Source: an uncultured Pseudomonadales bacterium (GTDB taxonomy: Bacteria; Patescibacteriota; Microgenomatia; UBA1400; PJMF01). Taken from it: 57,944 nucleotides of DNA. The notes below the pieces were generated by a model. It had not been told where the DNA came from. It searched no databases and saw only the letters and a program-made list of their open reading frames with translations. The stretch is taken from contig CAZYNM010000008.1 of assembly GCA_964648715.1 (NCBI GenBank), forward strand, positions 1-57,944, read 5' to 3'. Positions 9,030-56,111 of the stretch are shown one piece after another (position 1 is the stretch's first letter; each line of letters begins with the position of its first letter). The position numbers and the translations under genes are program-made.

Positions 9030-9062
9030 ATGAAGAAAGTACACACCTCAGTTTGCTTGTGA
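9030..9062 (+). CDS. Putative leader peptide MKKVHTSVCL
   Basis: Short ORF just after the -10 box, overlapping the left arm of a terminator-like hairpin. Confidence 0.4.
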   Translation: MKKVHTSVCL

Positions 9063-9082
9063 GAGCAGGAGGTGTTTTTTTT
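9043..9082 (+). terminator. Intrinsic terminator-like hairpin upstream of hpf
   Basis: ACACCTC/GAGGTGT stem, inner TGCTT-GTGA-GAGCA stem, then a T run. Confidence 0.65.
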
Positions 9083-9101
9083 GTCCGGAAGGAGGCATCA
9101 C

Positions 9102-9407
9102 ATGCAGGTGATTGTTGAAGGCAAAAACGTACTCGTTACCGAGGCACTGCGGCTACATGCAGAGAAGCAAGCCCAAAAACTTGGTAAAGTATCGCACCTT
9201 ATTTCTGTTGTGCGTGTCTATCTTGAAACAGTTGCGAAAAAGCACAATGATCCGTCAGCAAACACGGCAACATTTCATATTGAGATGCCAGGCAAAGATG
9301 CCACTATTACTAAAAAAGCGGTTGATATGTACGAAGCTATTATTTCGGCTGCAGAAGGTGCGGTGCGCCAGGTGCAAAAAGCGGTAGAAAAACAGCGTTC
9401 ACATTGA
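9102..9407 (+). CDS. hpf: Ribosome hibernation promoting factor (short HPF/RaiA)
   Basis: IVEGKNVLVTEALR, DMYEAI..A; AAGGAGG SD. Confidence 0.9.
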   Translation: MQVIVEGKNVLVTEALRLHAEKQAQKLGKVSHLISVVRVYLETVAKKHNDPSANTATFHIEMPGKDATITKKAVDMYEAIISAAEGAVRQVQKAVEKQRSH

Positions 9408-9439
9408 GTTTCTAGCAAAAACAAGGTAAGCTAGGCAGT

Positions 9440-9790
9440 ATGGCGCAACAAGATCCTCTAGCTCAACTTGAAGAACTTCTGGCGAAGGCAAAAGGGCAGC
9501 GAGGTCAAACTGATGCTGTGACAGCACCCCCTTCTGGTCCCACACCAGAAGAAATTGCAGCAGAACAAAAAGCTCAAGCCGAACAAGCCCTCAAGCAGCA
9601 GGAAGCGGAGGCCGAAGCTCATCGCACAGTGGCACTAGAGCAAGTCCGTGAGCAAATGCATGGACTCAGTGATTCTCCTCAAGATAAAGCTCGCAGACAG
9701 CAAGATGAACAAAAGAAGGCAGAGAAACAAGCTCAGTCAGAGCAAATGGAAGGATACGAAATCCGCCAGATTACAAACACAAAAATCTAG
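9440..9790 (+). CDS. Hypothetical Q/E-rich coiled-coil protein
   Basis: 116-aa ORF, co-oriented with neighbours. Confidence 0.6.
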   Translation: MAQQDPLAQLEELLAKAKGQRGQTDAVTAPPSGPTPEEIAAEQKAQAEQALKQQEAEAEAHRTVALEQVREQMHGLSDSPQDKARRQQDEQKKAEKQAQSEQMEGYEIRQITNTKI

Positions 9791-9792
9791 GA

Positions 9793-10419
9793 ATGCAGCC
9801 TATGCAACAACCCAGCTTCAGACCTCGGCCTGGTGGGGGATTTAATCAAGGCTTAGGTCAGTTTGGAGAGCATCTTGATGAGCAAGCACTCCTACAAGCA
9901 GCACAGCAAAAAGCGTTGTCACAACAGTCTAGTTCCGTTTCACAAACTCCGGTAGCTCAGAATCCTACCGACACAGCTGCTCCCGAACCTCAATCTGCTG
10001 GAGGACCAAGCCTTTTTGATACGCTCATTACCGCACCAATGGAGGCTATTGGTAAAACGTTCTTATCTTTGCTGGGTCTTGATAAGCTGCTGGGAATAGA
10101 TACCAGTGCTCCGCAAACACCAGAGGAAAGAGCAAAAAAACAGACACTACTGCGAAGGTACAACCAATTAGACGATGAACAACAGGCTGTGGCTCGTACT
10201 CGCTACCAACAGCGTTTACGTCGTGAACAAATGCTCCAGCAAGAAGAGGAGCGGCGACGTCAATTTGAAGCACAAAAAGACGAAGCACCTCTTCAAGCAC
10301 AAAGTAAACCTCAATCTGGAGCTCAAGGGCCTGGCGGGCAGCGGTCTAAAAAGCAGCAGATGTTATCAAAATTACAACAGGACAGAAAGACCTTATCTGG
10401 TCCACAGAGTGCTGGCTAG
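9793..10419 (+). CDS. Hypothetical Q-rich protein
   Basis: 208-aa ORF 2 nt after the previous stop. Confidence 0.65.
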   Translation: MQPMQQPSFRPRPGGGFNQGLGQFGEHLDEQALLQAAQQKALSQQSSSVSQTPVAQNPTDTAAPEPQSAGGPSLFDTLITAPMEAIGKTFLSLLGLDKLLGIDTSAPQTPEERAKKQTLLRRYNQLDDEQQAVARTRYQQRLRREQMLQQEEERRRQFEAQKDEAPLQAQSKPQSGAQGPGGQRSKKQQMLSKLQQDRKTLSGPQSAG

Positions 10420-10433
10420 GTGAAAGGAAAGAT

Positions 10434-11147: not shown

Positions 11148-11166
11148 CGATCCTTATGGTGAAACT

Positions 11167-11580: not shown

Positions 11581-11647
11581 AGACCTCCTTTGTGTGAGCA
11601 CATTATACAACAGACAAAGGTAGTCATCATGTTATACACTAATATGT

Positions 11648-14600
11648 ATGGCATTTAGCGAATCACGGCCACAAGTTACCCAAAAGCAAGAACGTCCACG
11701 CTTTGATGATGATCCTATTCGCCGAAGCATACTGTATGAAAAATGTTGCCAAATTCATAAGGCACAACTGGAAAAACTTCCGGACAAAAAAGCCAAAGCA
11801 CACTATCTTGCAAGTCACATTGATAAATCCTTCTTTGAAGTTGTGACCGGGCAGTTTGAAAAAGCACTGGGAGAGTGGTGGAGTGAAGACTTGATTCGTT
11901 TCTCAGCACTCAGTGATGAAGTTGTCAAAGAAATAACAGGTGATGTGTGGGAAGGAGCATGCCTGTGTATTGATAGTTTTCTCGAAAAAAATAAGCTGTT
12001 TACACAGCGAGACTTATCTTCAGCAATGTTTGTCAACGACATGCAAGAACGACGGCGTACAACGAGCATTGATGGTGTAGACATTATGCTCACCAGTGAA
12101 CGTGAGCTTTCTGCGATACGATATCAACTGACACTCCTTCGTATCCAAACATTAGAAAATGGTGCGAGCATCTCTACCGCAGACATGGAGCATACTGTAC
12201 AAAATGCTTTCCTTTTTTCGCAGCTTGAAAGAGATGAACCGGAGGGTTTATCAAGGCTCACTTTCCTGGTGAGAGAGATGCGCAGTGTTTTTCCTATGCA
12301 ACCAATCTGTCGGTATGTGTTCAATGAAAATAAAGACCTTTTGGAAGCAACAGAAACAGAAAAACTCATGAAGCTCAAGGGGATCTGGAAAAATGTTTTT
12401 TCTCTTTTTTTGGAAGTTGCTGCCCGCAAAGAGCTTACTGTCCACCCTTTAGGAAGAAGTTCGGCAGAAGCAGCAACACGTAAAGTAGGGCCAAATATAC
12501 GTAATTTTATTGATCAGCGTTCACATCAAGAAGTAGATCGTGCTGATTCATTGCTTGAGTCGCAATATGCTGGTCAAAAGCAGCAACTTCAGAAAGCAGC
12601 TAACTTGGCAATTATGGAATATTATGACAGGTTTCCTGCACTCCATGAGTTGCGGACAGTTTTTTCAAAGAGTGCCATTGACACCTTTATCAATACACTG
12701 CGTTTTGAGATTGCCACTCGTACTCGAGATAAACAGCAACTCAGTTCATTTGATATTCTTTATATGACTGAAACCGCAGAAGCACTTTTTGGTATAGAGA
12801 TGTTACAACATCTTTTTGGAAATGAGCATATTTCCAAAAACCCACCCATTGTTCGCCTTACACTATTATTCTATGTGTGCATGGGGCAAAATGGTTTTAG
12901 TTTTGGCAATGCCCGGCCACTTATTCAACAATGGGAACAGTTTATTCGACCCCATTTGACTGAGTATAAGGATACAAGCCCACCGTACCAAGAAAAAAGA
13001 ACTGGCACAGGACCACTCTACGACTTTAGGGAAAAAAAGTACGAGAAGGGATACCAAAGAGCACGTGACCGTTGGCAAAACAACGTTGCACTGCTCGAGT
13101 CAAAAGACTGCATCCGCAATGAAGAAGCAGAGGAATTTAAACAATTATTTGATAGTGCTATAACGCAACTTGCACCAAGCACAGATAAACTCACGACACT
13201 TATTGAGCTACAAAAAGCCTACCCAGCTGAAAGAAAAAAGCTGATAGCTGCGCTTGCTCTGCTGACAAGTGCAGTGGGCGGTAGTATTTTCCTGTGGCAA
13301 CTTGATATTAAGAGTGACTATCTTTTGTTGCAGTATAGGGTACTAGCCGTGATTGCTGCAGCATTTCTCCCTTCTTTTTACTTGCTCAATACCTATAGGC
13401 GGCAACGTCTTATTGCGAGATATGGAAGCGTCCGTTCGCTGCTTACCATATCTCCAGTACAACTTAACTCACTTGAGTATGCGCTGGAAGATATGCCGCG
13501 CAAAGATAAAAAAGGATTACGCAAGCTTGCGAGTGTTTCTGCTGCAACCCTGGCGATCTTACTCATGCTGCAGCTGGACATATCAATGCCAGGTAGCCTA
13601 GATACCTTACGCACTCAGGTTTCCCAGGGTGTCAGTGCTGCCAGCAGGGTAGGAGTTGGAGCCGCTGCCGCATTCTTTTCAGATGTTGGTGAGCTTGCTA
13701 GTTACCTTACAGATTACTTGATTGCACTGCTTCCAACACAAGAAACATCTCCATCTGAGAAACTGACAAATAATGAAAAAAACAACAAAATGGAGGATGC
13801 ACAGTTTACGACCTATGGTTCCCATAGTGACCTCACGTGGATCGACGAGACTGGTTACCTGAAGCCAGAGAGCGCATCTTATCAGCCTATTAGACTAGAG
13901 GAAGAAAGTAAGTTGCCAGTCATGCTACTTGATTCGGTAACGGCACTGCGTTCAGAAGTACTCAGCCAGGCACAACAAGGCAGGATAGTTCGCCTTAATC
14001 TTGATAAAGAGAACGCAGCATATGGTATTCCTCAAGGATATCGACCCAGTATGATTCTCTCCACACGAAGTGATGTTGTGCAGACGACTTCATCAGAGAT
14101 TGGTCTTGCGGTTAGTTTTTCTTCAGGCAGAAGTGGAAGAACAGCACTTGTGTATGAAGAAGATCCTAGTGGAATGACACAGCCACAGTCCTTTGTAGAC
14201 CTTCCTGACACTGATCTTATTCCAGATCAAAATTGGCAAAAAGGTGCACTCAAGTGGTTGCAACCACTTGAGGAAGAAGCGCGTAAATTACGTAAAAATG
14301 GTGCTACAGCTAGACAGATATTGGATCATCTAAAAGATGGTATCAGCCATCTTGGCATATCATATGGATATGAAGAGTATCTATCAACTGCAGATGTCCC
14401 AGAAGAGGAACTCATAGACCTATTTGCATTTGATAGCCAGGGAAAACCAACTAAGAAAGAATGGATCTGTACGCAATTTTCTCATGCACTCTATATACTT
14501 GCACGAGAAGCAGGACTTGATGTCCGTATCGCCAATGGAGCAATGCAGCTTACAGATGACATAAATGGTGGATATAAAGCCAGAAGACATCGCTTCCTTT

Positions 14601-15454
14601 TGTTTCGCGAGAAGCCAGGTGATGCATATGCATTTTTTGAAGCGACACTTCCGTCACTGACGGAGCCACTATTGCAGGAACCACAAGATGTTATTGATAC
14701 GCAGACAGAAGAAGACCCGCTTCTAAATGAAGCAAGAACAGAACAAAATATGCATCTTGCAGTGAACTGCCTTGCAGGCTTGGGTGCATTCTTGGCAATA
14801 AGTGGGATGGCTTTCTATGGGGTACGCAGGTACCGTTCCTACAAACAGGATCAGAGAGATGAAGCGTACTCAAACAGGTTTGATCGTTTGTCTAAAAAAC
14901 TCAAAGAGAATCCTCCTGAAGTACTCACTGCAGCATGGAGAATTATTTTTGCCTGTACCATTCAAAGTCCACTTAATTCTATCTATCGCGGCTCTCATGT
15001 AGCTCCTCGCCCTGTCAACTTTAAACCTGGAAAAGCGATGAATTATGAAGGTGCTGCATATCGCTGGTTTGACTTTCAAAAAGGAAGCGTTGTGCCATCC
15101 CAGGAAGAAGCAGCGCGAATTGTTGATCTGGCGCTCCACAGTTTTTCTGAACGTAGGTATACAACTCATGGCGAAGACCTTGCACTCTCCCAGCATATTG
15201 ATGAAATGTATGCTGCATTTGGTGCCGTGGCCAGTGAAGAAAGATTTGCCCGTGCTTCTAGAAGAAAGCGTTTTGTTAAAAGGATGATGAAACAGTTTTG
15301 GCAGACAAACATGGGTAGTCCTGTAACAGTCACACAGAGTCTTCAGATTGCTTCAGCTGCCATTACCAAGCAGATTGAAATGGAAGAATCGCTCTCTACT
15401 AAAGTGAAGATGCAAGAAGTTCGCAGTATCATTGAACTCTTACTTCCTGAATAA
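11648..15454 (+). CDS. Large multi-pass membrane protein with transglutaminase-like domain
   Basis: About 4 hydrophobic segments; ICTQFSHALYILAREAGLDVRIANG...H...EAT. Confidence 0.6.
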   Translation: MAFSESRPQVTQKQERPRFDDDPIRRSILYEKCCQIHKAQLEKLPDKKAKAHYLASHIDKSFFEVVTGQFEKALGEWWSEDLIRFSALSDEVVKEITGDVWEGACLCIDSFLEKNKLFTQRDLSSAMFVNDMQERRRTTSIDGVDIMLTSERELSAIRYQLTLLRIQTLENGASISTADMEHTVQNAFLFSQLERDEPEGLSRLTFLVREMRSVFPMQPICRYVFNENKDLLEATETEKLMKLKGIWKNVFSLFLEVAARKELTVHPLGRSSAEAATRKVGPNIRNFIDQRSHQEVDRADSLLESQYAGQKQQLQKAANLAIMEYYDRFPALHELRTVFSKSAIDTFINTLRFEIATRTRDKQQLSSFDILYMTETAEALFGIEMLQHLFGNEHISKNPPIVRLTLLFYVCMGQNGFSFGNARPLIQQWEQFIRPHLTEYKDTSPPYQEKRTGTGPLYDFREKKYEKGYQRARDRWQNNVALLESKDCIRNEEAEEFKQLFDSAITQLAPSTDKLTTLIELQKAYPAERKKLIAALALLTSAVGGSIFLWQLDIKSDYLLLQYRVLAVIAAAFLPSFYLLNTYRRQRLIARYGSVRSLLTISPVQLNSLEYALEDMPRKDKKGLRKLASVSAATLAILLMLQLDISMPGSLDTLRTQVSQGVSAASRVGVGAAAAFFSDVGELASYLTDYLIALLPTQETSPSEKLTNNEKNNKMEDAQFTTYGSHSDLTWIDETGYLKPESASYQPIRLEEESKLPVMLLDSVTALRSEVLSQAQQGRIVRLNLDKENAAYGIPQGYRPSMILSTRSDVVQTTSSEIGLAVSFSSGRSGRTALVYEEDPSGMTQPQSFVDLPDTDLIPDQNWQKGALKWLQPLEEEARKLRKNGATARQILDHLKDGISHLGISYGYEEYLSTADVPEEELIDLFAFDSQGKPTKKEWICTQFSHALYILAREAGLDVRIANGAMQLTDDINGGYKARRHRFLLFREKPGDAYAFFEATLPSLTEPLLQEPQDVIDTQTEEDPLLNEARTEQNMHLAVNCLAGLGAFLAISGMAFYGVRRYRSYKQDQRDEAYSNRFDRLSKKLKENPPEVLTAAWRIIFACTIQSPLNSIYRGSHVAPRPVNFKPGKAMNYEGAAYRWFDFQKGSVVPSQEEAARIVDLALHSFSERRYTTHGEDLALSQHIDEMYAAFGAVASEERFARASRRKRFVKRMMKQFWQTNMGSPVTVTQSLQIASAAITKQIEMEESLSTKVKMQEVRSIIELLLPE

Positions 15455-15484: not shown

Positions 15485-16966
15485 ATGCAGTTATACAACA
15501 CTCTTTCACGCACCATAGAGAAGGTGACAGGCTATTCCTCAAACCATTTGGGTTTGTATGCATGTGGACTAACAGTTTATGATTACACCCATTTGGGGCA
15601 TTTACGTAAATATACTTTTGATGACATCTTGGTGCGTGTACTACGTCATGCAGGCTTTAATGTCAAGTTTGTGCAAAACGTCACTGATGTTGGTCACCTG
15701 GCTTCAGATGCAGACACGGGCGAAGACAAATTAGAAAAGGGTGCTAAAAAATATGGTAAAAGTGTGTGGGATATTGCCCAAGAATTTGAAGACTACTTTT
15801 GGTACAGCATGGAGTTGATGGGCAACCTCAAGCCAGATGTCAGCTGCCGTGCCACTGAGCATATACAGGCACAACTGGCAATGGTGATAGAGCTTGAAAA
15901 AAAAGGCTTCACTTATGTAATTGGTGGTGATGGTGTGTACTTTGACACAAGTAAGTTAGACGATTATGGTAAATTGGCTGGGTTTGATCCCGATGCCTTG
16001 CAAGAGGGCGCACGGGTGGAGCCTGTTGCAGGAAAACGCAATAAAAGTGATTTTGCGTTATGGAAGTTTGAGCGTCCTGGAGAACACAGAGCAATGGTCT
16101 GGGAAAGTCCCTGGCACACGCGCAGTTTTCCTGGGTGGCACATTGAGTGTAGTGCAATGGCTATGCAGTACCTTGGCGCACAGTTTGAGATCCATACCGG
16201 AGGAATAGATCACATTCCAGTTCACCATACCAATGAGATTGCGCAGGCTGAAGCAGCCAGTGGTAAAAAACCCTTTGTAAAGTACTGGGTACACCACAAC
16301 TTCTTGAGAGTAGACGGTGAAAAAATGAGCAAATCACTGGGTAATTTCTTTACCATTGATGATGTTATAAAAAAAGGTTTTAGCCCTCGTGCGCTCCGTT
16401 TGTTGTTCCTTACCACTCACTATCGAAGCCAAATGAACTTTACTTGGGATACCCTGGAAGGTATGCAAAAGACGTATATACGTTTTCTCCAGCAAGTTGT
16501 TTCGTGCAAAAATGAAGCGGGAAGAACAGTCTTAAGTACAGAAAAATTAGAAAAAGTAGATACCTATAGAGCACGCTTTTATGCAGCGTTAGAACATGAT
16601 CTTAACACAGCTGAAGCAGTACCTATTGTGTGGGAAGTGATGAAGTCTAATATTCCTGGAGGTGATAAATACGACCTTATCGTAGAGTTTGATGAAGTGC
16701 TGGGGTTGGGTGTGCGTACTGCCGAAAAATATTTGACAGAGATCACATCACAACAAACAGCTACGACTTTTGCAGCCACTGATACACAGCTTCCAGCAGC
16801 AGTCCGCCAACTTTTGGCAGAACGTGCTGCAGCCAGGACTGCACGAGATTGGAATCAGTCAGACGAAAAGAGAGATGCACTCATCGCCCACGGGTACCGT
16901 GTTATTGATAAAACAAGTGAAGAACAGCTTGTCGTTCGGCTCACTGAAAACACGAACCCTGCATAA
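15485..16966 (+). CDS. cysS: Cysteinyl-tRNA synthetase
   Basis: [29 protein letters not shown]. Confidence 0.98.
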
Positions 16967-27437: not shown

Positions 27438-27470
27438 TCTTATGACGAGTAACATGCACTCATGCTTTTC

Positions 27471-27500
27471 AAAGTTCCCAAGCTGTTGCTTGGGAACTTT
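27471..27500. terminator. Perfect 13-bp inverted repeat after the fasciclin gene
   Basis: AAAGTTCCCAAGC-TGTT-GCTTGGGAACTTT. Confidence 0.7.
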
Positions 27501-27532
27501 AGTAGTAAGTAGTTTCTGGTACAATCAAAATT

Positions 27533-30882: not shown

Positions 30883-31668
30883 ATGAAAAAGACAAAACAT
30901 TTTTATAAAACACATTTTCAATTAGTTACGATCAAGAAAGCATATGAAGATTTTATGTTTACCAATCAATTGTCTAATGTGGACTCTTATAAAATTCTGG
31001 AAATTGAAGATACTAATGAAACGTGGAATTTCGATTCAATAGATGAATTTTTTTCTAATTACTACAAAGCTAATAGTTTTACTTTGTTCGTCTCAAGTAA
31101 ACAAAAAAGGTTATCACTATCACTAATGGGGGATAATAAGAATTATATCAGAGTTGAGGTTGAATCTGATGAAAGAGCGAAGGTTGAAAAAACTTTTCAT
31201 ATTTTTGAAGAGAATGCCGTAGCAAGTAAGGTAATTGAAGCTGAAGAAGTGGTTAAAATATTTATTGGACATGGTAGAGATCAACAATGGAAATTACTCA
31301 AAGATCATTTGCATGAACAGCATGGTTATAAAATAGAACATTATGAAATTGGTCCTAGGGCAGGAACTACTGTTAAAGAAGTTTTAGAGTCAATGTTAAA
31401 TTCTTCTAGTTTTGCTTTACTTGTAATGACTGGTGAAGATTTAGATAATGTGGGAAATATACACGCCAGAGAGAACGTTATTCACGAAATTGGTTTATTT
31501 CAAGGTAGGTTGGGCTTTCAAAAAGCATTAGTTTTAAAAGAGGATGGTGTCAATGAATTTTCTAACATTTTTGGTATAAATCAAATTAGATTTTCAAAAA
31601 AAAATATTAGAGAAAGTTTTGGTGATGTAGTTGCAGCAATAAAAAAAGAATTTGAAGGTAAACATTAA
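30883..31668 (+). CDS. Cap12/Pycsar-type TIR domain protein (C-terminal TIR), AT-rich
   Basis: IFIGHG...FALLVMTGED...ARENVIHEIGLFQGRLG. Confidence 0.85.
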   Translation: MKKTKHFYKTHFQLVTIKKAYEDFMFTNQLSNVDSYKILEIEDTNETWNFDSIDEFFSNYYKANSFTLFVSSKQKRLSLSLMGDNKNYIRVEVESDERAKVEKTFHIFEENAVASKVIEAEEVVKIFIGHGRDQQWKLLKDHLHEQHGYKIEHYEIGPRAGTTVKEVLESMLNSSSFALLVMTGEDLDNVGNIHARENVIHEIGLFQGRLGFQKALVLKEDGVNEFSNIFGINQIRFSKKNIRESFGDVVAAIKKEFEGKH

Positions 31669-33885: not shown

Positions 33886-33887
33886 TG

Positions 33888-33896
33888 TGGTATACT
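33888..33896 (+). promoter_or_regulatory. Extended -10 element for rpsF operon
   Basis: TGGTATACT. Confidence 0.6.
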
Positions 33897-33901
33897 ACGC
33901 C

Positions 33902-33975
33902 TTGTCACGTTTGTGCTGTAGGTAGTGAAGTACCAAGCAGCATCCAGTAGCTCAACAAACGTATGACGAAAGGAG
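33902..33975 (+). promoter_or_regulatory. Structured 5' leader of rpsF-ssb-rpsR
   Basis: ACGTTTGT/ACAAACGT outer stem, TGCTG/CAGCA and GGTA/TACC inner stems, AAAGGAG SD adjacent. Confidence 0.55.
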
Positions 33976-33983
33976 CATAACCC

Positions 33984-39187: not shown

Positions 39188-40435
39188 CTACTCTCCCAAA
39201 GAAAGTTGTGCAATGACTTGTGAGAGAGAAAGACGGTCTTGTTGGCCTGTCTGCATATTCTTGAGTGATACTGTGCCATTTGCAGCCTCATCTTCACCAA
39301 TTACAACGACGTACGGTATTTTTTTTTGGTCAGCCAGCTTGAACTGCTTACCCAACTTGTCAACAGCAGGGTAGAGTTCAGTCTTGATGCCTGCTTGACG
39401 GAGCTGAGCTGTAGCTGCATATGCTGCTGCTGCACTTTCCTCAGAAAAAACACTCACGAGCACTTGAGTACCCTGGCCTTTTTGTTGTAACAGTCCCAGT
39501 TCTTCAAGCACTTCAACTGTTCTATCAAAGCCCACTGCAAAACCAACTGCGGGCATAGTGTAGCCTGAGAGTTGTTCTATGAGGTTGTCGTATCTACCGC
39601 CACCACCCAGTGATCCACTCGGATATTCGGGTACGCGACTCTCAAAAATGAGACCAGTGTAGTAATCCAAGCCGCGAGCTAGATTGGGGTTTCTTTTGAG
39701 TGCTTCACGTGGCACACCCAACTCAATAGCAATGTCTACAATTTGTTGTAATTGATTTGATATAGGAGCATTTTTAAGTTTGCTTAAAAGTTCATCAGCA
39801 GCAGCTGAAGTAAGGCCTTTCTCTACCAACTCTGCCGCTACTTCCGCAGGGCTCTGTTTGTCTAATTTGTCTATCGTTTGGGTCAAAGACAAAACAGGTG
39901 TTTGGGTAGTAGCAAAGGGGGTAAGAACCGAAAATAGTGTCTCACGATCGTTGATTTCAATCACGACAGATTTGAGACCAAGCTCACGGTACACAGCATA
40001 AAAAACTGCCAACACTTCAGCGTCTGCTTGTGCGCTGGTGCTGCCAAAAATATCACAGTCACTTTGGGTAAATTCGCGATACCGTCCTTTTTGTGGTTTG
40101 TCGGCGCGGAATACATTTTGGATTTGGTAGCGGCGGAAGTAGCGAGGGAGCTCACTTTGATACTGGTAGAGAATACGTGCCGTGGGTACCGTTTGGTCGT
40201 AGCGAAGTGCAATTGCGCGATCACCTCGATCTTGGAATGAATACACAAGCTTGTCTGCTTCGTCGCCATATTTACCCATAAGCAGTTCTGCATACTCCAG
40301 GGTGGGTGTTTCCAGTGGCTCAAAACCAAACCGCTCATATACTGAGCGCATAGTGGCCATCACAAAATCACGCGCACGTTTCTTCTGGGGTAAAAAATCT
40401 CTAAATCCTTTAAGTGTTTGTACTGGTGTTTGCAT
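39188..40435 (-). CDS. hisS: Histidyl-tRNA synthetase
   Basis: KGFRD, LRYDQT, FRADKPQKGRYREF, ARGLDYYTG, GGGRYD. Confidence 0.98.
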   Translation of the reverse strand: MQTPVQTLKGFRDFLPQKKRARDFVMATMRSVYERFGFEPLETPTLEYAELLMGKYGDEADKLVYSFQDRGDRAIALRYDQTVPTARILYQYQSELPRYFRRYQIQNVFRADKPQKGRYREFTQSDCDIFGSTSAQADAEVLAVFYAVYRELGLKSVVIEINDRETLFSVLTPFATTQTPVLSLTQTIDKLDKQSPAEVAAELVEKGLTSAAADELLSKLKNAPISNQLQQIVDIAIELGVPREALKRNPNLARGLDYYTGLIFESRVPEYPSGSLGGGGRYDNLIEQLSGYTMPAVGFAVGFDRTVEVLEELGLLQQKGQGTQVLVSVFSEESAAAAYAATAQLRQAGIKTELYPAVDKLGKQFKLADQKKIPYVVVIGEDEAANGTVSLKNMQTGQQDRLSLSQVIAQLSLGE

Positions 40436-40468
40436 AGATTCCTTTATTAGTTCTCCTGTTTTTTTTAC

Positions 40469-40493
40469 AAAAAATCCCGCCTATGTGCGGGAT
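40469..40493 (-). terminator. Attenuator terminator upstream of hisS
   Basis: ATCCCGC-ACATAG-GCGGGAT followed by a T run on the minus strand. Confidence 0.85.
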
Positions 40494-40527
40494 GGTGACG
40501 TACTTTTTGAGCACACAAAACCATCCC
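40489..40527 (-). promoter_or_regulatory. Antiterminator hairpin of hisS attenuator
   Basis: GGGATGGT (40527-40520) pairs with ACCATCCC (40496-40489), which overlaps the terminator 5' arm. Confidence 0.8.
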
Positions 40528-40572
40528 TCAGGCGAGAGTATGATGATGTGCTGCAGTACACTTACTAAACAT
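40528..40572 (-). CDS. His leader peptide MFSKCTAAHHHTLA
   Basis: ATG TTT AGT AAG TGT ACT GCA GCA CAT CAT CAT ACT CTC GCC TGA, upstream of hisS. Confidence 0.85.
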   Translation of the reverse strand: MFSKCTAAHHHTLA

Positions 40573-40578
40573 AGGTGT

Positions 40579-40587
40579 AGTATACCA
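40579..40587 (-). promoter_or_regulatory. Extended -10 for hisS leader
   Basis: TGGTATACT, 6 nt before the leader ATG. Confidence 0.75.
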
Positions 40588-40644
40588 TCGCCAGAACACT
40601 TAGCCAAATACGAAAGGGGTGTTACAATACAAGATGCACATTGA

Positions 40645-40717
40645 GGGCCCGTAGCTCATCTGGTAGAGCGCTGCATTCGCATTGCAGAGGCGGTCGGTTC
40701 GAGTCCGATCGGGTCCA
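40645..40717 (+). tRNA. tRNA-Ala(CGC)
   Basis: GGGCCCG/CGGGTCC acceptor with G3:U70, CTGCA-TTCGCAT-TGCAG anticodon arm, GTTCGA T-loop; CCA not encoded. Confidence 0.95.
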
Positions 40718-46160: not shown

Positions 46161-48248
46161 CTAGAGGCGAAGACCATTTTCTACAGCACTCAGAAGAGGT
46201 GAAAAGTGTCCTCGGAACCAAGCTGAAAATAGGGGGACCTGTGGTTCACCCATTTTTTGTTCTTTGCCTTTGGCACCAAGGCTAGGGTGGGCAGCCCATT
46301 CACTCAGGATACCGGGATGGAGAGCAGCAGCAGCAAGCCCGCCCATGAGAATGCTCCAGTGATCTCCGTATTTTTCCTGAATACGGGATAGTACTTCTGA
46401 AGGTAGTGCGGTGTCGGCAAAACGGGGATTGGCGGGTAAGATTGCTTCTTTGAAGAGGGGTGCTGGTTGGGAACTTCCCAGTTTCCAACAGAGTAGGGGA
46501 GTGATGCATCGTTCACTTGTTTCTGTAGTGGTAAGAGGGTGTGGTTTGAGGTTTTTGAGTCTGTCACCACTGAACTCAAGTTCTGGTGTCAGTTGATAGG
46601 AGCCATCTGAGCCATCAGGGAATCGAACCTGTATTCTATTGTGGGCGGCATCGGCGGCCCTGAGCAGAATGGTGGGAACATCTTGAGGTTCCGTATAATA
46701 CGCTTTTACCTCCAGACCATCTTGCGTTTCAACACACTCTATTTGTGCCCAATGCACGCCTGGCGTTATTGGGGGTTGATGAAGGACAGTGATCAGTTTT
46801 TCTAAAATTGTTGAGCCGGCTACCTGTGCAAGGTGCGCGGTGAATGCCTTGCGTTCAAGACCTTCTCCATACGTTTGCGCATGTGTGTATGTCACTGTGT
46901 TTGCGGGGGTATGGCAAGCTGCTAAATAACTGATAAGTTGAAATAAACTGTACTCGACGCTAATCGACTTTGAATAAGCACTCTGTGCATCATTGAGGGC
47001 AGTCAACCAATCACGCTTTTCATGTTGAAACTCCGACCAGCCGGGTATCTGATCATGCAGCTCGAGTATTTCAGTTTTTTCATCAACCCAATCAGCCTTG
47101 GTGAATGTAGGGATATCCGCTAGATTCCCATAGGAAGTTCCAGTACTGGGTGCTACAGCATGCAGCAGTCTCAACAAACCTACAGAATAGACCGGTGCAA
47201 ATACGAGGAGTCCGTATTGTTCGCCTGTTGAAGTGGTAATAACTTCTACACGAGGAGGGGCCTCTTGTGCCGCTACACGTATGTGTTCTAGGGCAGCGCG
47301 TTGGGAACCTTGGCGAGACAGTTTGAGTGCACTCTGATCTTTTTGCTCTAGAGCACAGGGTACTATGATATGAATGCCGTCTCCCTGGAGGGAAGTGATG
47401 GTCAGGTGAGTAGGGAGAGTGAGCTGTGGTGCACGAACTCGTTCTTGTTCAGTGATGAGTGGTGCCAGGAAAGCCTGGAGTGTTACCTCAAATTGATTGG
47501 GAGTAGTCAACCATTGGCTAAGTCCTGGGGTAACAAATGATTCTTGTTCTAACGTTTCGAGGAACCGTTTCCCTCGGTGTGAAGGCACCGCACCACTATA
47601 GAAAGATGTGTAGGTGTGGTAGGTGTCTCTTCGAGTTGGTTTGCCCAGGATTCCCTGTAATTTTTGGCGGACATCATCAAGGAATGATTGCAGCGTACGC
47701 TTGTAGTACCACTGGTCATTGCCATCAATAGACTGTTTGTTACCACTCATGTCGCAGATCAAAAAATGCATCATATAGTCTGGCATTGATCGTATGTATG
47801 ATTCATTTCTGAAGGTGGTGACAACTTGGCGAAGCACCATGTGTGCAGTAGCGCGATCAATGATACGTTCCAGACCAAGTTCTTGTGGGGTATACATGAG
47901 GGTGAGAAAGCAGAGTAGCTGGCGTTCTTCGGGCTGAGACAGGTGTGAAAAATAGGTTGTTAGTTGGTCATAGTGTGCTTCAAGTGTTTCTTGAGCTGCA
48001 CTAAGCCATGTTGTCACGGCTTGGGTGGTTTCATCAGGCATCTTTGACCAATAGAGATCTTTCTGATGTGCTGCGGTAATCTGTGCTGCAACACGAGCAG
48101 GATTGTAGAGCTGCTGGAGTGCTTCGCGAGAAGCAAAAAATGGTGTGCTTCCTTTATTTATAAATACATTCGTAGCCAACACCGCAGAGTTTATCCATTG
48201 GAATTCTGGCAATGATGTTTGAGGTTCTTGCTCCGGAGATTTCCGCAT
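46161..48248 (-). CDS. Large hypothetical protein, possible APH/kinase-like fold centrally
   Basis: 695-aa ORF; TGCTATACT upstream. Confidence 0.6.
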   Translation of the reverse strand: MRKSPEQEPQTSLPEFQWINSAVLATNVFINKGSTPFFASREALQQLYNPARVAAQITAAHQKDLYWSKMPDETTQAVTTWLSAAQETLEAHYDQLTTYFSHLSQPEERQLLCFLTLMYTPQELGLERIIDRATAHMVLRQVVTTFRNESYIRSMPDYMMHFLICDMSGNKQSIDGNDQWYYKRTLQSFLDDVRQKLQGILGKPTRRDTYHTYTSFYSGAVPSHRGKRFLETLEQESFVTPGLSQWLTTPNQFEVTLQAFLAPLITEQERVRAPQLTLPTHLTITSLQGDGIHIIVPCALEQKDQSALKLSRQGSQRAALEHIRVAAQEAPPRVEVITTSTGEQYGLLVFAPVYSVGLLRLLHAVAPSTGTSYGNLADIPTFTKADWVDEKTEILELHDQIPGWSEFQHEKRDWLTALNDAQSAYSKSISVEYSLFQLISYLAACHTPANTVTYTHAQTYGEGLERKAFTAHLAQVAGSTILEKLITVLHQPPITPGVHWAQIECVETQDGLEVKAYYTEPQDVPTILLRAADAAHNRIQVRFPDGSDGSYQLTPELEFSGDRLKNLKPHPLTTTETSERCITPLLCWKLGSSQPAPLFKEAILPANPRFADTALPSEVLSRIQEKYGDHWSILMGGLAAAALHPGILSEWAAHPSLGAKGKEQKMGEPQVPLFSAWFRGHFSPLLSAVENGLRL

Positions 48249-51016: not shown

Positions 51017-51640
51017 ATGGAGCAAAAATCACGCAGATTCTCCTTTCCCCAAGATCCCATTACCTATTTGTGTCCAAGTTGGGATGACCTGACCACGTAT
51101 TGTTGCGCGCTAACTGACTCGCTAGAGGGTAGTACATGTGATGTCGTGGTCAGTCTCGCCAAAGGAGGTTGGCCACTTTCTCGGATGTATGCAGATTGTG
51201 CAGGTGTGAGAGAGCTCTATAGCCTGGGTGTGAAGTTCTACACTGGCATTGATGAGCAAGCAGTTGCTCCTGTGGTGTATCAAGATATTGATCCTATTCT
51301 CATTGCGGGCAAGACAGTGCTCCTCTTTGATGATATTGCCGACTCTGGTCATTCACTCCGTTTTGCGACATCACATCTACTTTCGTTGGGAGCAAGCAAG
51401 GTTGTTTCAGTCGTGATTTATTACAAACCACGGTCTGTGGTGAAGCCAGATCACTACTGTGCAGAAACAACCGATTGGGTGATCTTTCCCTTTGAAGTGT
51501 TTGAGACGTGCCAGCAACTCAGCCAGCGATGGGCAAAACTAGGTATTCCAGAAGAGACACAGCGTGACTATCTCCTAAGGTTGGGGATAGCAGAGCAGTG
51601 GATTAGTAAGTATCAAAAGGAGGTTGACAAGCATATATGA
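51017..51640 (+). CDS. Purine phosphoribosyltransferase (Hpt/Gpt-like)
   Basis: AKGG, VLLFDDIADSGHSL, WVIFPFE. Confidence 0.85.
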   Translation: MEQKSRRFSFPQDPITYLCPSWDDLTTYCCALTDSLEGSTCDVVVSLAKGGWPLSRMYADCAGVRELYSLGVKFYTGIDEQAVAPVVYQDIDPILIAGKTVLLFDDIADSGHSLRFATSHLLSLGASKVVSVVIYYKPRSVVKPDHYCAETTDWVIFPFEVFETCQQLSQRWAKLGIPEETQRDYLLRLGIAEQWISKYQKEVDKHI

Positions 51641-51652
51641 TGCGTATACAAT
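51624..51652 (+). promoter_or_regulatory. Near-consensus sigma70 promoter for guaB leader
   Basis: TTGACA-17 nt-TACAAT. Confidence 0.8.
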
Positions 51653-51668: not shown

Positions 51669-51775
51669 ATGCGAGAGCACCTTCGTTGCTTTCGCTCCCA
51701 AGTAACAAAACTATTCATGTAACCTCAACATGAATAGGGAAACCAAGTAGAGCAGAAAGTAAGGGAGGTGTTTTT
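51669..51775 (+). promoter_or_regulatory. Structured guaB leader with 17-aa uORF
   Basis: 9-bp and 10-bp hairpins, alternative CACCTTC/GGAGGTG pairing before T5; uORF 51669-51722. Confidence 0.55.
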
Positions 51776-51875
51776 GTATAATATGACTAAATAATCAATC
51801 CATTCCTTGTGTTGTTTTTCTCAATTTTTCAGAAAACGTTTATTCGTATTTTGTATAAAGTAAAAAGGTACATTT

Positions 51876-53033
51876 ATGATTCATTCTATTTCAGATTTAG
51901 CACAGATCCCCATTTATCTTACCTATGACGATGTTTTGCTTAAGCCCGGTTTTTCTGACTTCTCACGTCAAGACATAACTACTAAAACACGTCTTTCTAA
52001 AAACGTATTTCTTGATCTTCCTTTGGTCGCAGCGCCAATGGATACCGTCGTTGAGGCACGATTAGCAAGTGCGCTTGCTCAGAAGGGCGGCATTGGCATC
52101 ATGCATCGCAATATGTCTATTGCAGATCAAGCTAGTCAGGTACAACAAGTCAGCAGTCAGAACCTGCAAGTAGGCGCGGCAGTAGGGTACACAGAAGGAT
52201 ATCTTGAGCGAGCATTAGCATTAGTACAAGCTAATGTAACTGTGTTACTCATTGATTCAGCCCATGGTGCATGTACTCCTATGGTAAATGCTATTCGAGA
52301 ACTCAAAAAAAACTATCCACATATTGATATTATTGCTGGAAACGTAGCTACCTATGAGGGCGCACGGGTTCTTATTGAAGCAGGTGCCGATGCAATTCGT
52401 GTAGGGATGGGTCCAGGCGCAATATGCACAACACGCATTATTTCTGGCATGGGGGTGCCACAGCTTTCAGCACTAGTTGATACTGTTCGAGCAGGTAGAG
52501 AGCACAATGTGCCAATTATTGCTGATGGTGGCATCAAGTATTCTGGAGACATGGTTAAAGCATTAGCTGTTGGTGCAGAGACAGTTATGATGGGTAGTTA
52601 CTTTGCTTCTAGTGTCGAGTCACCAGGAGAGTTGGTAACGTTGAAAGCACATGAGCTTCCTGAGAAATTTAAACATTTAATTAAACCAGGACAAAATGAA
52701 TATCACTTTAAAACATATCGTGGCATGGGATCTGAAGCGGCAATGAAGAAGGGAGCCGAAATAAAGTCAGAAGATGAGTTTCACGGTAAGCAGTATGGTA
52801 AGGATCGTGTGCTTGTGGCCGAAGGTGTGGAAGCGTTAGTACCTATCAAGGGTACTGTCGCAGAGCTAGTTGATCAGGCACTTGGTGGAATTAAATCCGG
52901 TATGTATTATGTAGGAGGAAGAACAATTGCAGAGCTTCAAGAGACTGCACAGTTCTTACGTATTACCGATGCTTCTCTTAAGGAAAGTCATCCACACAGC
53001 CTAGTTATTACAAATGCTGGAAAAAATTATTAA
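51876..53033 (+). CDS. guaB: IMP dehydrogenase/GMP reductase family, no CBS domain
   Basis: [34 protein letters not shown]. Confidence 0.9.
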
Positions 53034-53034
53034 T

Positions 53035-54933
53035 ATGCACGCAAACACTTCCAAAGTTGCTATTCTTGATGCCGGTGCTCAGTATGCCAAAGTCATAGAT
53101 CGGCGGGTACGGGAGCTTGGTGTTGAGTCAGTCCTGCTCCCTCTAAATACGCCAGCAGCACAGCTGGCTGGATATGGTGCAATCATCATCTCTGGAGGAC
53201 CACAGAGTGTCTACTCCGTTGATGCACCTGCCTATGATCGTGCCATGCTGCAACTCAAAGTTCCATTTTTAGGTATTTGTTATGGTATGCAGCTCATGGT
53301 TCATGCAAGTGGTGGTGTAGTTGAAAAAAAAGCACGTCGCGAAGATGGACCATGCAATATTTCTGTACAACCGGAAAGTGCGCTTTTTCGCGGACTTATT
53401 CCTGAGCAAATGGTTCTTATGAGCCATGGTGACAGTGTGAGTAAGCTTCCTGAGGGATATGTAGTTACTGCAGAGTCACAAGGAATTATTGCAGCCATTG
53501 AGTGTGCTGCAACTCAACGTTATGGGGTTCAATTTCACCCAGAAGTTGATCTGACTGTAAATGGTAATCGTATCATTGAAAACTTCATATGTAGTATTGC
53601 CGCTCTGCCCAGAACCTACACAGTGCATGATCGGCAAGCAAAGGCACTTGAATACATACAATCAACAGTAGGAACAGGAAAAGTCTTACTTCTAGTAAGT
53701 GGTGGCGTAGACTCAAGTGTATGCGCTGCGCTTATCCGAAAAGCATTGCCTCCAGAACAGATCATTGCTGTCCATATTGACAGTGGCATGATGCGTAAAG
53801 GTGAAAGCGCACAGGTTGCAGCGGCCTTGCGTGCTCAGGGTGTTCCACTCACGGTGATAAATGCTGCAGCAGACTTTTTTGCTGCAACGACTGTCATGCA
53901 TGGGAAAGTGATTGGTCCATTGCATACAGTCTTAGAGCCACAACATAAACGTCAAATTATTGGTGACACGTTTATCAAAGTAGTTGAGAACTACTTGCAG
54001 GAACTCAACTTGGATTTGGACACCGTATTTTTGGCGCAGGGCACGCTACGTCCAGACCTTATTGAAAGTGCATCCACACACATAAGTAGCACAGCCAGTG
54101 TTATCAAGACACATCATAATGACACTGAAATTGTCAGAGCATTGCGTGCGCGAGGACGCGTCATTGAGCCACTTGCAGAGTATCACAAAGATGAGGTCAG
54201 GGTATTAGGTGAAGAGTTGGGACTACCTCATGAAATGGTGTGGAGACAACCATTTCCTGGCCCTGGTTTGGGTATTAGAATCTTGTGTGCCACTGAGCCC
54301 TATCTTACTTCAGAATACTCAGCTATCCTTAAGAATTTACAAGTGCACGTCCCTAAGAAATATGCTGTTACTGTACTTCCGGTACGGACTGTGGGTGTAC
54401 AAGGAGATGGTAGAACATATAGCTATGTTGCAGCACTTAGCTGTGAGCGTGATGCACTGAGCTTTGCACCAGTAGAGTGGGAAGAGATTATTAATTTAGC
54501 TCGAGAACTGCCTAAGTATGTGCATCAAATTAATAGAGTTGTCTGGATGTTCGGAGCACCAGTGTCAGTGTCAGTTACCAGTATTACGCCAACGCTCCTC
54601 ACTCCTGATACCGTTGCTCAACTACAAATACCAGATGCTATTGTTTCTCAAGCAATCATACGTCACAATCTGGGCACTGTTTTGAGTCAAGTACCGGTGA
54701 TACTTGTGCCTGTGGACTGTGAAGCACCGAATCATCAAGGTGGACGTTGTATTACTATTCGTACATTTATTACCAATGACTTTATGACTGGGATACCTGC
54801 AACACCAGGTAAAGAATTGCCACTTGAAGCACTCAAAGAGATGGTAACAGAGGTGGAAGCTCAGACACCAGGAATATCTCGAGTATTATACGATCTTACG
54901 TCAAAGCCACCTGGCACTACAGAATGGGAGTAG
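53035..54933 (+). CDS. guaA: GMP synthase (long form)
   Basis: LDAGAQY, GICYG, QFHPE, SGGVDS, PFPGPGL, KPPGTTEWE. Confidence 0.97.
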   Translation: MHANTSKVAILDAGAQYAKVIDRRVRELGVESVLLPLNTPAAQLAGYGAIIISGGPQSVYSVDAPAYDRAMLQLKVPFLGICYGMQLMVHASGGVVEKKARREDGPCNISVQPESALFRGLIPEQMVLMSHGDSVSKLPEGYVVTAESQGIIAAIECAATQRYGVQFHPEVDLTVNGNRIIENFICSIAALPRTYTVHDRQAKALEYIQSTVGTGKVLLLVSGGVDSSVCAALIRKALPPEQIIAVHIDSGMMRKGESAQVAAALRAQGVPLTVINAAADFFAATTVMHGKVIGPLHTVLEPQHKRQIIGDTFIKVVENYLQELNLDLDTVFLAQGTLRPDLIESASTHISSTASVIKTHHNDTEIVRALRARGRVIEPLAEYHKDEVRVLGEELGLPHEMVWRQPFPGPGLGIRILCATEPYLTSEYSAILKNLQVHVPKKYAVTVLPVRTVGVQGDGRTYSYVAALSCERDALSFAPVEWEEIINLARELPKYVHQINRVVWMFGAPVSVSVTSITPTLLTPDTVAQLQIPDAIVSQAIIRHNLGTVLSQVPVILVPVDCEAPNHQGGRCITIRTFITNDFMTGIPATPGKELPLEALKEMVTEVEAQTPGISRVLYDLTSKPPGTTEWE

Positions 54934-54973
54934 TCCAAAAAAGGTGTAGGTATATCCCACTAGAAAAAATCAT

Positions 54974-55996
54974 ATGACAGCACATCTACCAGTTAGTTCA
55001 GAAAATATTTCTTTTTTGGAAAGTGTTGAACTTACAGAACTACATGCTCACCTGGGGGCGGCACTTTCGGCGACCGAATTGTGGGAGATGGCGCATGACC
55101 AGGGTTTGAAACTACCAACAAAAGATTATCGGCAGTTTGAACGATTAGTGAATGTTTATGAGGCCAAGGATTTTGAAGAGCAATTAAAGATATTTGATTT
55201 GACGGAAAAAATACAATCATCACCAGAGGCTATGTTCCATGCACTGCAGCATGTGATTTCTGAAGCATACAGAAAAAATAATATTACAACTCTGGAGCTA
55301 CGATTTAATCCCATTTTTCGTTGCCAAGACGGTGAACGTGATATGGATCATATTTTAGTATTTGCACTTCAAGGCATGGAGCGAGCACAGCTCAAGTATG
55401 GTGTGCGGGCCGGACTTATTTTATGTATGGATCGTCGGCTATCATTAGAAAAAAATACTGCCATCGTAAAAAAAGCAATTAAGTACAAAGACCGCGGTGT
55501 GGTAGGCATTGATTTGGCTGGTCCTGTTCTTCGCAGCGAACAAAGTCAAACATTCCGACCACGTGATATTGCACACTTGGCGGCAGAAGCACGAGCGGCA
55601 GGATTAGGAGTAACATTTCATACTGGCGAAGTAACAGGTGTCGATGAGATGTGGGAGGTAGTCAAAGAAGTACAACCAGACAGAATAGGGCATGGTATTG
55701 CCTGTGTAAAAGATGAATCACTCATGGTAGAGCTTCGTGAGAAAAATATTGTTCTTGAATTGTGTCCAAGCTCGAACATCCACACTAAAGTACTGCAAGA
55801 TTATGATGCGGTAAGAGATGTGTTTGTCCAGATTAAGAAACATGGTGTTCCCTACACAATTAATACTGACTGGCCAGCTACTTTAGGCCTTTCGCTCCGA
55901 CAGCAAATAGCACAATTATTGGAGCATAATGTAATTAACAAAGAAGATGTGTTGCAGGCTAATGCAGTTGCCGTGAATGCATCGTTCATAGAATAA
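54974..55996 (+). CDS. add: Adenosine deaminase family
   Basis: ELHAHL, HTGE, RIGHG, LCPSSN, NTD. Confidence 0.88.
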   Translation: MTAHLPVSSENISFLESVELTELHAHLGAALSATELWEMAHDQGLKLPTKDYRQFERLVNVYEAKDFEEQLKIFDLTEKIQSSPEAMFHALQHVISEAYRKNNITTLELRFNPIFRCQDGERDMDHILVFALQGMERAQLKYGVRAGLILCMDRRLSLEKNTAIVKKAIKYKDRGVVGIDLAGPVLRSEQSQTFRPRDIAHLAAEARAAGLGVTFHTGEVTGVDEMWEVVKEVQPDRIGHGIACVKDESLMVELREKNIVLELCPSSNIHTKVLQDYDAVRDVFVQIKKHGVPYTINTDWPATLGLSLRQQIAQLLEHNVINKEDVLQANAVAVNASFIE

Positions 55997-56005
55997 CCGC
56001 TCCTG

Positions 56006-56014
56006 TGGTATAGT
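56006..56014 (+). promoter_or_regulatory. Extended -10 for glyA leader
   Basis: TGGTATAGT, 6 nt before an ATG. Confidence 0.7.
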
Positions 56015-56020
56015 AGATGC

Positions 56021-56071
56021 ATGATTAAGTCACCCAACGCGTTCCAGCTTTCGTTCTCCACGTTGTTCTAG
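56021..56071 (+). CDS. Putative leader peptide MIKSPNAFQLSFSTLF
   Basis: ATG at leaderless spacing; 3' end forms the left arm of an SD-sequestering hairpin. Confidence 0.55.
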   Translation: MIKSPNAFQLSFSTLF

Positions 56072-56111
56072 ACATGAAGTATTTCATGTAGTAGAACAAT
56101 CCAGAGGAGAA
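56054..56111 (+). promoter_or_regulatory. SD-sequestering hairpin upstream of glyA
   Basis: TTCTCC/GGAGAA, TTGTTCTA/TAGAACAA and ACATGAA/TTCATGT nested stems. Confidence 0.65.

Follow-up and report, generated by a model that had tools for sequence, protein, structure and literature searches.

The stretch of DNA analysed here (the window: contig CAZYNM010000008.1, 57,944 nucleotides, nt, in all) carries translation and nucleotide genes, among them thyA, folA, dut, tmk, recR, a gene for a sigma-70-family factor, hpf, cysS, zwf, gnd and the rpsF-ssb-rpsR cluster, together with a release factor gene, rpmE, hisS, dnaB, lgt, rluD, a phosphoribosyltransferase gene, guaB, guaA, add and glyA. The closest homologs of its HisRS, Hpf and GlyA proteins are from Patescibacteria, several of them labelled Candidatus Woesebacteria, and the source appears to be a Woesebacteria-like Patescibacterium in which many transcripts seem to begin at or beside the start codon. 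Our subject is the leaders upstream of four of these genes, hpf, hisS, guaB and glyA. The original prediction, made by inspection of the sequence, had described them as one family with a common layout: a promoter, a short upstream open reading frame (uORF) at or near the transcription start, and a hairpin at the 3' end of the uORF that either terminates transcription or hides the Shine-Dalgarno sequence (SD). All four leaders were found at the positions given there. Three details were adjusted: hpf starts at ATG 9102 rather than GTG 9072, the glyA uORF is now placed at 56021-56071, and the ATG of the guaB uORF (51669) is 16 nt past the strong -10 box.

Upstream ORFs ahead of hisS, hpf and glyA

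The hisS gene (39188-40435, minus strand; Pfam PF13393 and PF03129; homologs found) encodes histidyl-tRNA synthetase. Its leader promoter, at 40579-40607 on the same strand, consists of TTGGCT, a 17-nt spacer and a TG-extended TATACT (TGgTATACT ending at 40579). The ATG of the leader peptide MFSKCTAAHHHTLA lies 6 nt past this -10 box, and its ORF (40528-40572; ATG TTT AGT AAG TGT ACT GCA GCA CAT CAT CAT ACT CTC GCC TGA) contains three His codons, CAT CAT CAT at 40548-40540, four to six codons ahead of the stop. Directly past the stop codon begins GGGATGGT (40527-40520), which is predicted to pair with ACCATCCC (40496-40489) to form an antiterminator (40489-40527, minus strand; fold of -18.2 kcal/mol, z = -4.0). 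The second of these strands overlaps a terminator at 40468-40493, ATCCCGC-acatag-GCGGGAT (40493-40474) followed by T6.

The same anatomy recurs among the 80 Patescibacterial hisS loci that we compared. Many of them have, in its short form, an ORF of 15-17 codons with HHH or HHHH 2-4 codons before the stop, a -10 box 5-10 nt ahead of it, and a G-tract and a C-rich terminator behind it. A His-run leader of this type lies within 4.5 kb of hisS at 35 of the 80 loci; some of the 35 are longer variants that stand before upstream genes preceding hisS and have the G-tract inside the ORF. Upstream of hisS, 34 kb of sequence contained 23 uORFs that combine a His run, a -10 box and a T-run, versus 1 in 2.87 Mb of control sequence. 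The enrichment, about 2000-fold, is specific to His, every other amino acid giving at most one match. A terminator (stem plus T-run) follows 25-44 nt past the stop in 24 His-run leaders, and for 20 of these a pairing of its 5' arm with the 18 nt just past the stop is predicted. The duplexes between each leader's own G-tract and terminator arm are more stable than those of permuted pairs (-10.3 vs -8.7 kcal/mol, P = 0.0004); the antiterminator covaries with the terminator. No match to the Rfam His_leader (RF00514) or T-box (RF00230) models was found in the window at the gathering score. When the leader region (40380-40660) was scanned at E values up to 10, again neither His_leader nor T-box appeared, and only a sub-threshold Trp_leader match was returned (23.5 bits vs a cut-off of 41).

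The original prediction had singled out hisS as its strong case, and this was borne out: the element is a conserved His-codon attenuator across Patescibacteria. Judged by its sequence, the hisS leader is a classical ribosome-mediated leader-peptide attenuator, and its uORF probably starts leaderless. With charged tRNA-His plentiful, a ribosome at the stop codon would cover the adjoining G-tract, the terminator would form and transcription would stop. With His scarce, the ribosome would stall on the three His codons and leave the G-tract free; this tract would then engage the C-rich arm on the 5' side of the terminator, forming the antiterminator, and hisS would be transcribed.

Longer His leader peptides (e.g. 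MSSYKPSLAHHHSPHTMRGSISHI) were seen 0.8-3.4 kb upstream of hisS, before other same-strand genes that precede hisS. The loci concerned are L022 (at about 2996), L014 (2581), L031 (1601), L069 (898), L074 (358), L013 (4161), L051 and L063. One of the genes behind these leaders looks like hisG by its N-terminal sequence and another like a HAD-type phosphatase. The control sequence contains a single His-run uORF, MLTITPAPIPVHHHIHLAI, on the minus strand of L029 (about position 7076 of the reverse-complemented locus). It too is accompanied by a -10 box and a T-run, and possibly represents a true His attenuator of a gene other than hisS.

The hpf (raiA) gene encodes a protein of 101 amino acids, of the short form (9102-9407, plus strand; Pfam PF02482; homologs found), and has the SD AAGGAGG at 9089-9095. 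The leader promoter at 8994-9021 on the same strand has -35 TTGCTT (8994-8999), a 16-nt spacer and -10 TATTAT (9016-9021). The ATG of the uORF MKKVHTSVCL (9030-9062, plus strand; ATG AAG AAA GTA CAC ACC TCA GTT TGC TTG TGA) follows 8 nt past the -10 box, with no SD. In the predicted fold, ACACCTC (9043-9049), GAGGTGT (9069-9075) and T8 (9075-9082) make up an intrinsic terminator (9043-9082, plus strand), whose 5' arm falls within uORF codons 5-7 and whose loop region contains the uORF stop.

Across six hpf lineages (Hpf identity 54-79%; relatives at 79, 73, 66, 56 and 55%) a sigma-70-type promoter is followed after 7-9 nt by an ATG, and the -35/-10 arrangement of the window leader is also found in relatives L161-L173. 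The uORF peptides of the relatives share no sequence (MQKVDTPEADKGGTSCK; MQKEYTPGAHHTAMGFFCTKGGT; MSDSMTPSS; MLVSINLVNI; MTRVEIIHFLSRTSL). In five of the six lineages (the window, L162-165, L166-168, L169-170 and L171-173) the 5' arm of a terminator lies inside the uORF and the stem is followed by T7-8. The arm starts 11-16 nt from the AUG in four of these five terminator-bearing lineages, with the stop usually in the loop. In L161 the same uORF segment is predicted to pair with the hpf SD. The gene upstream of hpf is divergent in both the window and L161, and the hairpin is therefore not the terminator of an upstream gene there.

From this geometry we infer that a ribosome on the hpf uORF prevents termination. 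As the uORF peptides are unlike one another, no one amino acid would be sensed: any ribosome on the uORF would block the terminator, and hpf transcription would report ribosome loading or the time that ribosomes dwell there. The hpf leader is thus probably a generic translation sensor. We found no report of the control of hpf or raiA by such a uORF-terminator in the literature searched.

The glyA gene (56118-57431, plus strand; Pfam PF00464) encodes serine hydroxymethyltransferase. Its leader promoter at 55985-56014 on the same strand has TTCATA, an 18-nt spacer and a TG-extended TATAGT (TGgTATAGT ending at 56014); TGGTATNNT also stands 6-10 nt ahead of the uORF in L178, L181 and L182. The leader peptide MIKSPNAFQLSFSTLF (56021-56071, plus strand), its ATG 6 nt past the -10 box, is kept in six lineages. 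In the predicted leader structure (56053-56112, plus strand), GUUCUCC of codons 12-13 (56053-56059) pairs with GGAGAAU of the SD region (56106-56112). The enclosed hairpin TTGTTCTA..TAGAACAA (56063-56099) has the last uORF codons as its 5' arm and abuts the SD at 56104-56109; the fold of the window leader, SD pairing included, has z = -3.85. The glyA leaders of L182, L178 and L082 are likewise predicted to pair their uORF region with the SD, and those of L178 and L181 have a terminator-like GTGCG-T6-8 past the uORF.

The glyA peptide has 15-16 residues and the form MIKS-x6-[SA]FS[TS]x, in which the middle six residues vary freely (MIKSHILFLVSFSTL in L178, MIKSRVSYLLSFSTL in L181, MIKSSLIFHLAFSTC in L182, MIKSRLAALQSFSSAQ in L082 and (V)IKSRLPALQSFSSAQ in L106). 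Divergence at codon positions 1, 2 and 3 is 0.32, 0.35 and 0.65, and synonymous and nonsynonymous codon differences number 72 and 93 in frame versus 9 and 143, and 5 and 149, in the other two frames; in codons 2-4 the pairwise differences are all synonymous (24 vs 0 nonsynonymous). The substitution pattern is of the coding type and therefore indicates selection at the amino-acid level.

The conserved Ser-Phe-Ser-Thr codons are placed with respect to the stop as are the His codons in the hisS leader. By this analogy our guess would be that the glyA uORF senses Ser, on which serine hydroxymethyltransferase acts; an effect of the nascent peptide is just as possible. If a ribosome paused near the Ser, Phe or Thr codons, the glyA SD would be exposed or, in some relatives, a terminator would be counteracted instead.

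A metagenome scan with GuaA gave relatives of at most 59% identity with gene order seldom conserved, and glyA was present only in L081, L082 and L106. The window sequence at 56017-56028, ATG CAT GAT TAA, at the front edge of the glyA uORF, corresponds to the last codons (..HD and stop) of an unrelated small gene upstream of the L082 uORF. This suggests that in the lineage of the window the small gene disappeared or gave way to add, with the junction to the uORF kept.

A structured RNA ahead of guaB

Upstream of guaB, which encodes an IMP dehydrogenase that lacks a CBS domain (51876-53033, plus strand; Pfam PF00478), the promoter at 51624-51652 on the same strand (TTGACA, 17 nt, TACAAT) agrees with the consensus at 11 of 12 positions. 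The layout of the original prediction is present here as a 17-codon ORF, MREHLRCFRSQVTKLFM (51669-51722, plus strand). Its ATG at 51669 sits 16 nt past the strong -10 box, so that it is less clearly leaderless than the others, and the ORF is not conserved and is probably incidental: most relatives (L177, L082 and L083) lack a start codon at the corresponding position, and the ORFs that L106 and L178 have there are in different frames. A test of the uORF by way of GuaB homologs gave it no support. In L180 the upstream region is unrelated, and in L182 guaB follows add by 16 nt with no leader.

What is conserved is an RNA. A 107-nt rod (51671-51777, plus strand; fold z = -5.75) is closed by a stem P1, GCACCUUC / GGGAGGUG in the window, which is followed by a U-run. 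It continues through a stem P2 (GCUUUCGCUC / GAGCAGAAAG in the window, GCUUUCGCUC / GAGCNGAAAGC across homologs) and a near-invariant internal loop, CCCAAGUAAC / GGAAACCAAGU, and ends in a variable apical hairpin at 51711-51737; the hairpin noted earlier is only this tip. An alternative 5' hairpin, GCGAGAGC/GCUUUCGC in the window and GCGAAGGC/GCUUUCGC across homologs, competes with the rod.

Homologs, detected by a short exact match, are intergenic in L177, L178, L145/L106, L082/L081 and L083. Seven lineages share the same fold, each sequence having been folded separately, with near-invariant loops and an RNA of about 105 nt. Compensatory changes, in a small sample, convert GCACC/GGUGC of P1 to GCAUC/GAUGU and occur in P2 of L083. 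RNAalifold returned the 5' hairpin alone, since MAFFT misregistered the 3' strand; the rod is shown by the separate folds. A covariance model scored the window at 90 bits and recovered L178, which was outside the training set, at E = 1e-7. Its search of 1.8 Mb gave no further copies beyond the seven lineages, and Rfam scans of the guaB leader and the L106 RNA, by gathering score and by E-value, gave no match.

The genes downstream of the RNA differ, and include guaB, a 418-amino-acid unknown, a weak HD-domain match, a GNAT acetyltransferase and a 280-amino-acid unknown; the syntenic position of the element, behind rluD or a phosphoribosyltransferase gene, is kept. The closest GuaB homologs are 59-61% identical, and a concatenated GuaB and GlyA query found close GlyA relatives, with close GuaB relatives being rare. 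Taken together the sequences point to a conserved RNA with two alternative folds and its own terminator, a candidate for either a riboswitch or a small RNA.

The adjacent GuaA (53014-54933) is 639 amino acids long, compared with about 515 for the GMP synthase of L180. Its closest relatives match over almost the whole length, and the long form is therefore conserved in the group.

One layout, several kinds of leader

To measure the layout against chance we required a -10-like hexamer, an ATG 5-10 nt later, an ORF of 8-30 codons and a hairpin at its stop. These features came together in 5 of 17 upstream regions of the window versus 0.36 +/- 0.58 expected, and none of 1000 dinucleotide shuffles reached 5. 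The layout is thus far above chance. The fifth candidate (27438-27532) probably combines the hairpin that terminates the upstream gene with the leaderless promoter of the next one.

The four leaders do not form a single family. The hisS leader reads one amino acid, the hpf peptides are unrelated, the glyA peptide is conserved and the guaB leader is a structured RNA. The guaB uORF is absent from relatives, which keep the RNA. The idea that the uORFs lie at the transcript 5' end is supported for hpf and glyA, where the position is kept in relatives. It also agrees with several protein genes of the window that start 6-9 nt past a -10 box and have no SD, namely cysS, an AHSA1-domain gene, ychF, rpsR, lgt and a gene for a 400-amino-acid unknown (starts at 15485, 27533, 31717, 34932, 48932 and 6547). 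Leaderless mRNAs thus seem to be common in this genome, as far as promoter spacing tells. The product of ychF has been linked to the translation of leaderless mRNA (PMC12641178). For cysS, which has only 30 nt upstream, no Cys leader was found.

The sequence anatomy of the leaders, their conservation, the codon-level selection and the predicted pairings are established in this analysis. On these grounds we think it likely that the hisS, hpf and glyA leaders are conserved uORF switches, in which the position of a ribosome on a 5'-end short ORF would decide which downstream RNA hairpin forms, and that the guaB leader acts as RNA with its uORF incidental. The interpretation in the original prediction is supported in part, in that three of the leaders would be read by ribosomes on leaderless uORFs, each of a different kind, and the fourth is an RNA element.

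Several observations weigh against the reading as uORF switches. At hisS, 22 of the 24 leaders could form a hairpin that joins the His codons to the G-tract, a pairing whose strength does not exceed that in shuffled sequence (mean z = -0.46). The hpf leader of L161 has no terminator, the length and stop position of the hpf uORF vary (9-22 codons), and the uORF of L162 reads through the terminator. Structures downstream of the glyA uORF differ among lineages; the end of the upstream gene, stop included, is overlapped by the uORF in L082 and L106, with a -10-like box behind the uORF; the uORF is degenerate and lacks a stop in L174, is reduced to MI and a stop in L175 and is replaced by an unrelated uORF in L177; and the CU-rich SFS codons may owe part of their conservation to an anti-SD role instead of to the amino acids that they encode. 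Shuffling removes genuine promoters too, and part of the excess in the chance test is therefore due to promoters and not to uORFs. Leaderless initiation and termination, for their part, are deduced from spacing and consensus, and we infer the transcription start sites, the translation of the uORFs and every regulatory outcome.

These points bear unequally on the other explanations. An alternative in which the leaders of hpf and glyA act as attenuators, by RNA alone or under the control of a protein, or as stability elements, their ATG belonging to a conserved but untranslated initial transcribed sequence, seems to us unlikely. Such a reading would account for the unrelated hpf peptides with their unconserved stops, for the glyA hairpins that vary by lineage and for the retention of only ATG ATT TAG in L175, and uORF translation at both genes is deduced from the sequence. 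It does not account for the ATG kept 7-9 nt past the -10 box in hpf leaders that are mutually unalignable (L166, L169 and L171), nor for the three-base periodicity at glyA (72 synonymous differences in frame vs 9 and 5), which would be unexpected from constraint at the RNA or DNA level. The amino-acid conservation at both ends of the glyA peptide (MIKS and SFST) would also suit a small protein with a function of its own, merely co-located with glyA and without regulation, and in L082 and L106, where the uORF is ahead of a -10-like box, it may belong to another transcript than glyA. We regard this as improbable, however: the uORF is always directly upstream of glyA though the preceding gene differs (add in the window), its 3' codons in the window are built into the hairpin that pairs with the glyA SD, and its middle six residues vary.

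For guaB, the mechanism first proposed was that a ribosome translating the 17-codon uORF would open up the 5' strand of the rod and keep transcription from terminating. The uORF does cover that whole strand, the rod ends in a U-run and the geometry resembles that of the hpf leader; but with the 16-nt spacing, a start codon missing in L177, L082 and L083, other frames in L106 and L178, and near-invariant loops that point to constraint on the RNA, this mechanism is improbable. It is scarcely credible that all four are chance ORFs beside ordinary terminators or stabilising hairpins with no regulatory role. Short ORFs are common in intergenic DNA, and the match at 27438-27532 looks like one, but against this stand the window test, the His-specific enrichment upstream of hisS, by which the explanation is already contradicted for that gene, and the conservation of the hpf and glyA layouts across lineages.

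A bolder version of the preferred reading, in which ribosome position selects the hairpin, would have the hpf leader sense idle ribosomes. A free 70S ribosome would bind the 5'-terminal AUG of the nascent transcript and cover the terminator arm, and only then would hpf be transcribed; HPF-bound ribosomes would be unable to load, which would close a negative feedback loop. That this holds, and that the hpf, hisS and glyA leaders together form a main regulatory layer of Patescibacteria, we consider doubtful.

How general such leaders are was asked of a limited sample. The fetched loci, 1.8 Mb in total, are biased towards hisS and guaA neighbourhoods and are unsuited to testing generality; the unbiased sample of the lineage is the 58-kb window itself, and the claim of a general strategy for genes of translation and nucleotides rests on three loci. 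When the 1.8 Mb were screened for genes preceded by a -10 box, an ATG, a uORF and a terminator, leaders of hisS and glyA came back together with a few matches that are probably due to chance; in this biased sample no new class appeared. The further claim that the window encodes no transcription factor besides a sigma factor holds as far as Pfam reaches: among about 60 ORFs only the sigma-70-family protein (8404-8985) was matched, and a regulator could be hidden among the roughly 11 ORFs that have no Pfam match.

Other features of the window were noted in passing. The rpsF gene (ribosomal protein S6) has a TGgTATACT promoter, a 5' untranslated region of about 85 nt (33886-33983) and a normal SD, with no Rfam match; to judge from this arrangement the region may be an autoregulatory leader of the rpsF-ssb-rpsR cluster. 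Amid housekeeping genes, the ORF at 30883-31668 has a CAP12/Pycsar-effector TIR domain (PF10137, E = 2e-24) and is a possible anti-phage defence effector. Two large ORFs, 11648-15454 (1268 amino acids) and 46161-48248 (695 amino acids), have no Pfam match. At the gathering score, Rfam detected only two tRNAs (tRNA-Ala and tRNA-Leu) in the whole window.

Implications and comparison with known systems

Patescibacteria have tiny genomes and few transcription factors, and to our knowledge almost nothing is known of gene regulation in this group (the Candidate Phyla Radiation). In the literature searched we found no paper on attenuation or leader peptides in Patescibacteria. The leaders described here give a first view of possible gene control in ultrasmall, regulator-poor bacteria. 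If our reading is right, the His attenuator would be a phylum-wide element, predictable from sequence, that takes the place of the T-box logic of Firmicutes for hisS. The hpf leader would suggest a direct link between ribosome availability and the production of a hibernation factor, and the glyA peptide and the guaB-leader RNA would be unclassified regulatory candidates beside one-carbon and purine genes. The leaders could then also help in annotating small ORFs and provide native control parts for those Patescibacteria that can now be cultured. The class of mechanism is known; the hisS, hpf, glyA and guaB instances, the phylum and the hpf target appear to be unreported within the literature searched.

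The guaB leader is like the riboswitches or small structured RNAs of purine genes, and like the raiA-motif and 6S-type rod RNAs, in several respects: a promoter of its own, an internal loop that is conserved and lies between covarying stems, a 3'-terminal terminator and an alternative 5' hairpin. It is unlike them in having no Rfam match at any threshold and variable downstream genes, and is a candidate element.

Classical leader-peptide transcription attenuators include hisL of E. coli and Salmonella, trpL and pheM-pheST. With these the hisS leader shares a short ORF with tandem cognate codons, an intrinsic terminator and an overlapping antiterminator that would depend on ribosome position; as in pheST and the hisS paralog of Bacillus, the regulated gene is an aminoacyl-tRNA synthetase. 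It differs from the classical systems in that the uORF starts 5-10 nt past the -10 box with no SD, is probably leaderless and has only 3-4 His codons, and in that the 5' strand of the antiterminator comes right past the stop. It also belongs to another phylum, where it is widespread, and does not match the Rfam His_leader. In bacilli, His leader peptides have been predicted upstream of a hisS paralog and of hisZ (Naville & Gautheret 2010, PMC2965389).

Leaderless short ORFs that act in regulation have been described in mycobacteria, as polycysteine ORFs with the concept of a "ribulon" (Canestrari et al., bioRxiv 10.1101/834739), and the leader peptide of the Corynebacterium ilvBNC attenuator has been discussed in terms of leaderless translation initiation (PMC11857589). 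Our leaders resemble these systems in the 5'-terminal AUG, which here is deduced from the -10 spacing, the lack of an SD and a sensory short ORF as first cistron; also shared would be the opening of a blocking structure by stalling and the coordination of several loci through the ribosome. The mycobacterial elements sequester a ribosome-binding site, whereas hisS and hpf use intrinsic terminators, and only the glyA leader of the window resembles such sequestration. The amino acids and targets differ as well, being His for hisS, none for hpf and possibly Ser for glyA.

Other uORF attenuators sense slowed translation or ribosome-targeting antibiotics, among them bmrB-bmrCD and vmlR of B. subtilis, lmo0919 of Listeria and the ermC leader. 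The hpf leader is like these attenuators in that a short uORF of free composition overlaps a terminator and ribosome occupancy would lead to read-through. It is unlike them in its target, a ribosome hibernation factor, in its probably leaderless uORF, and in the placement of the terminator arm within the footprint that an initiating ribosome would have.

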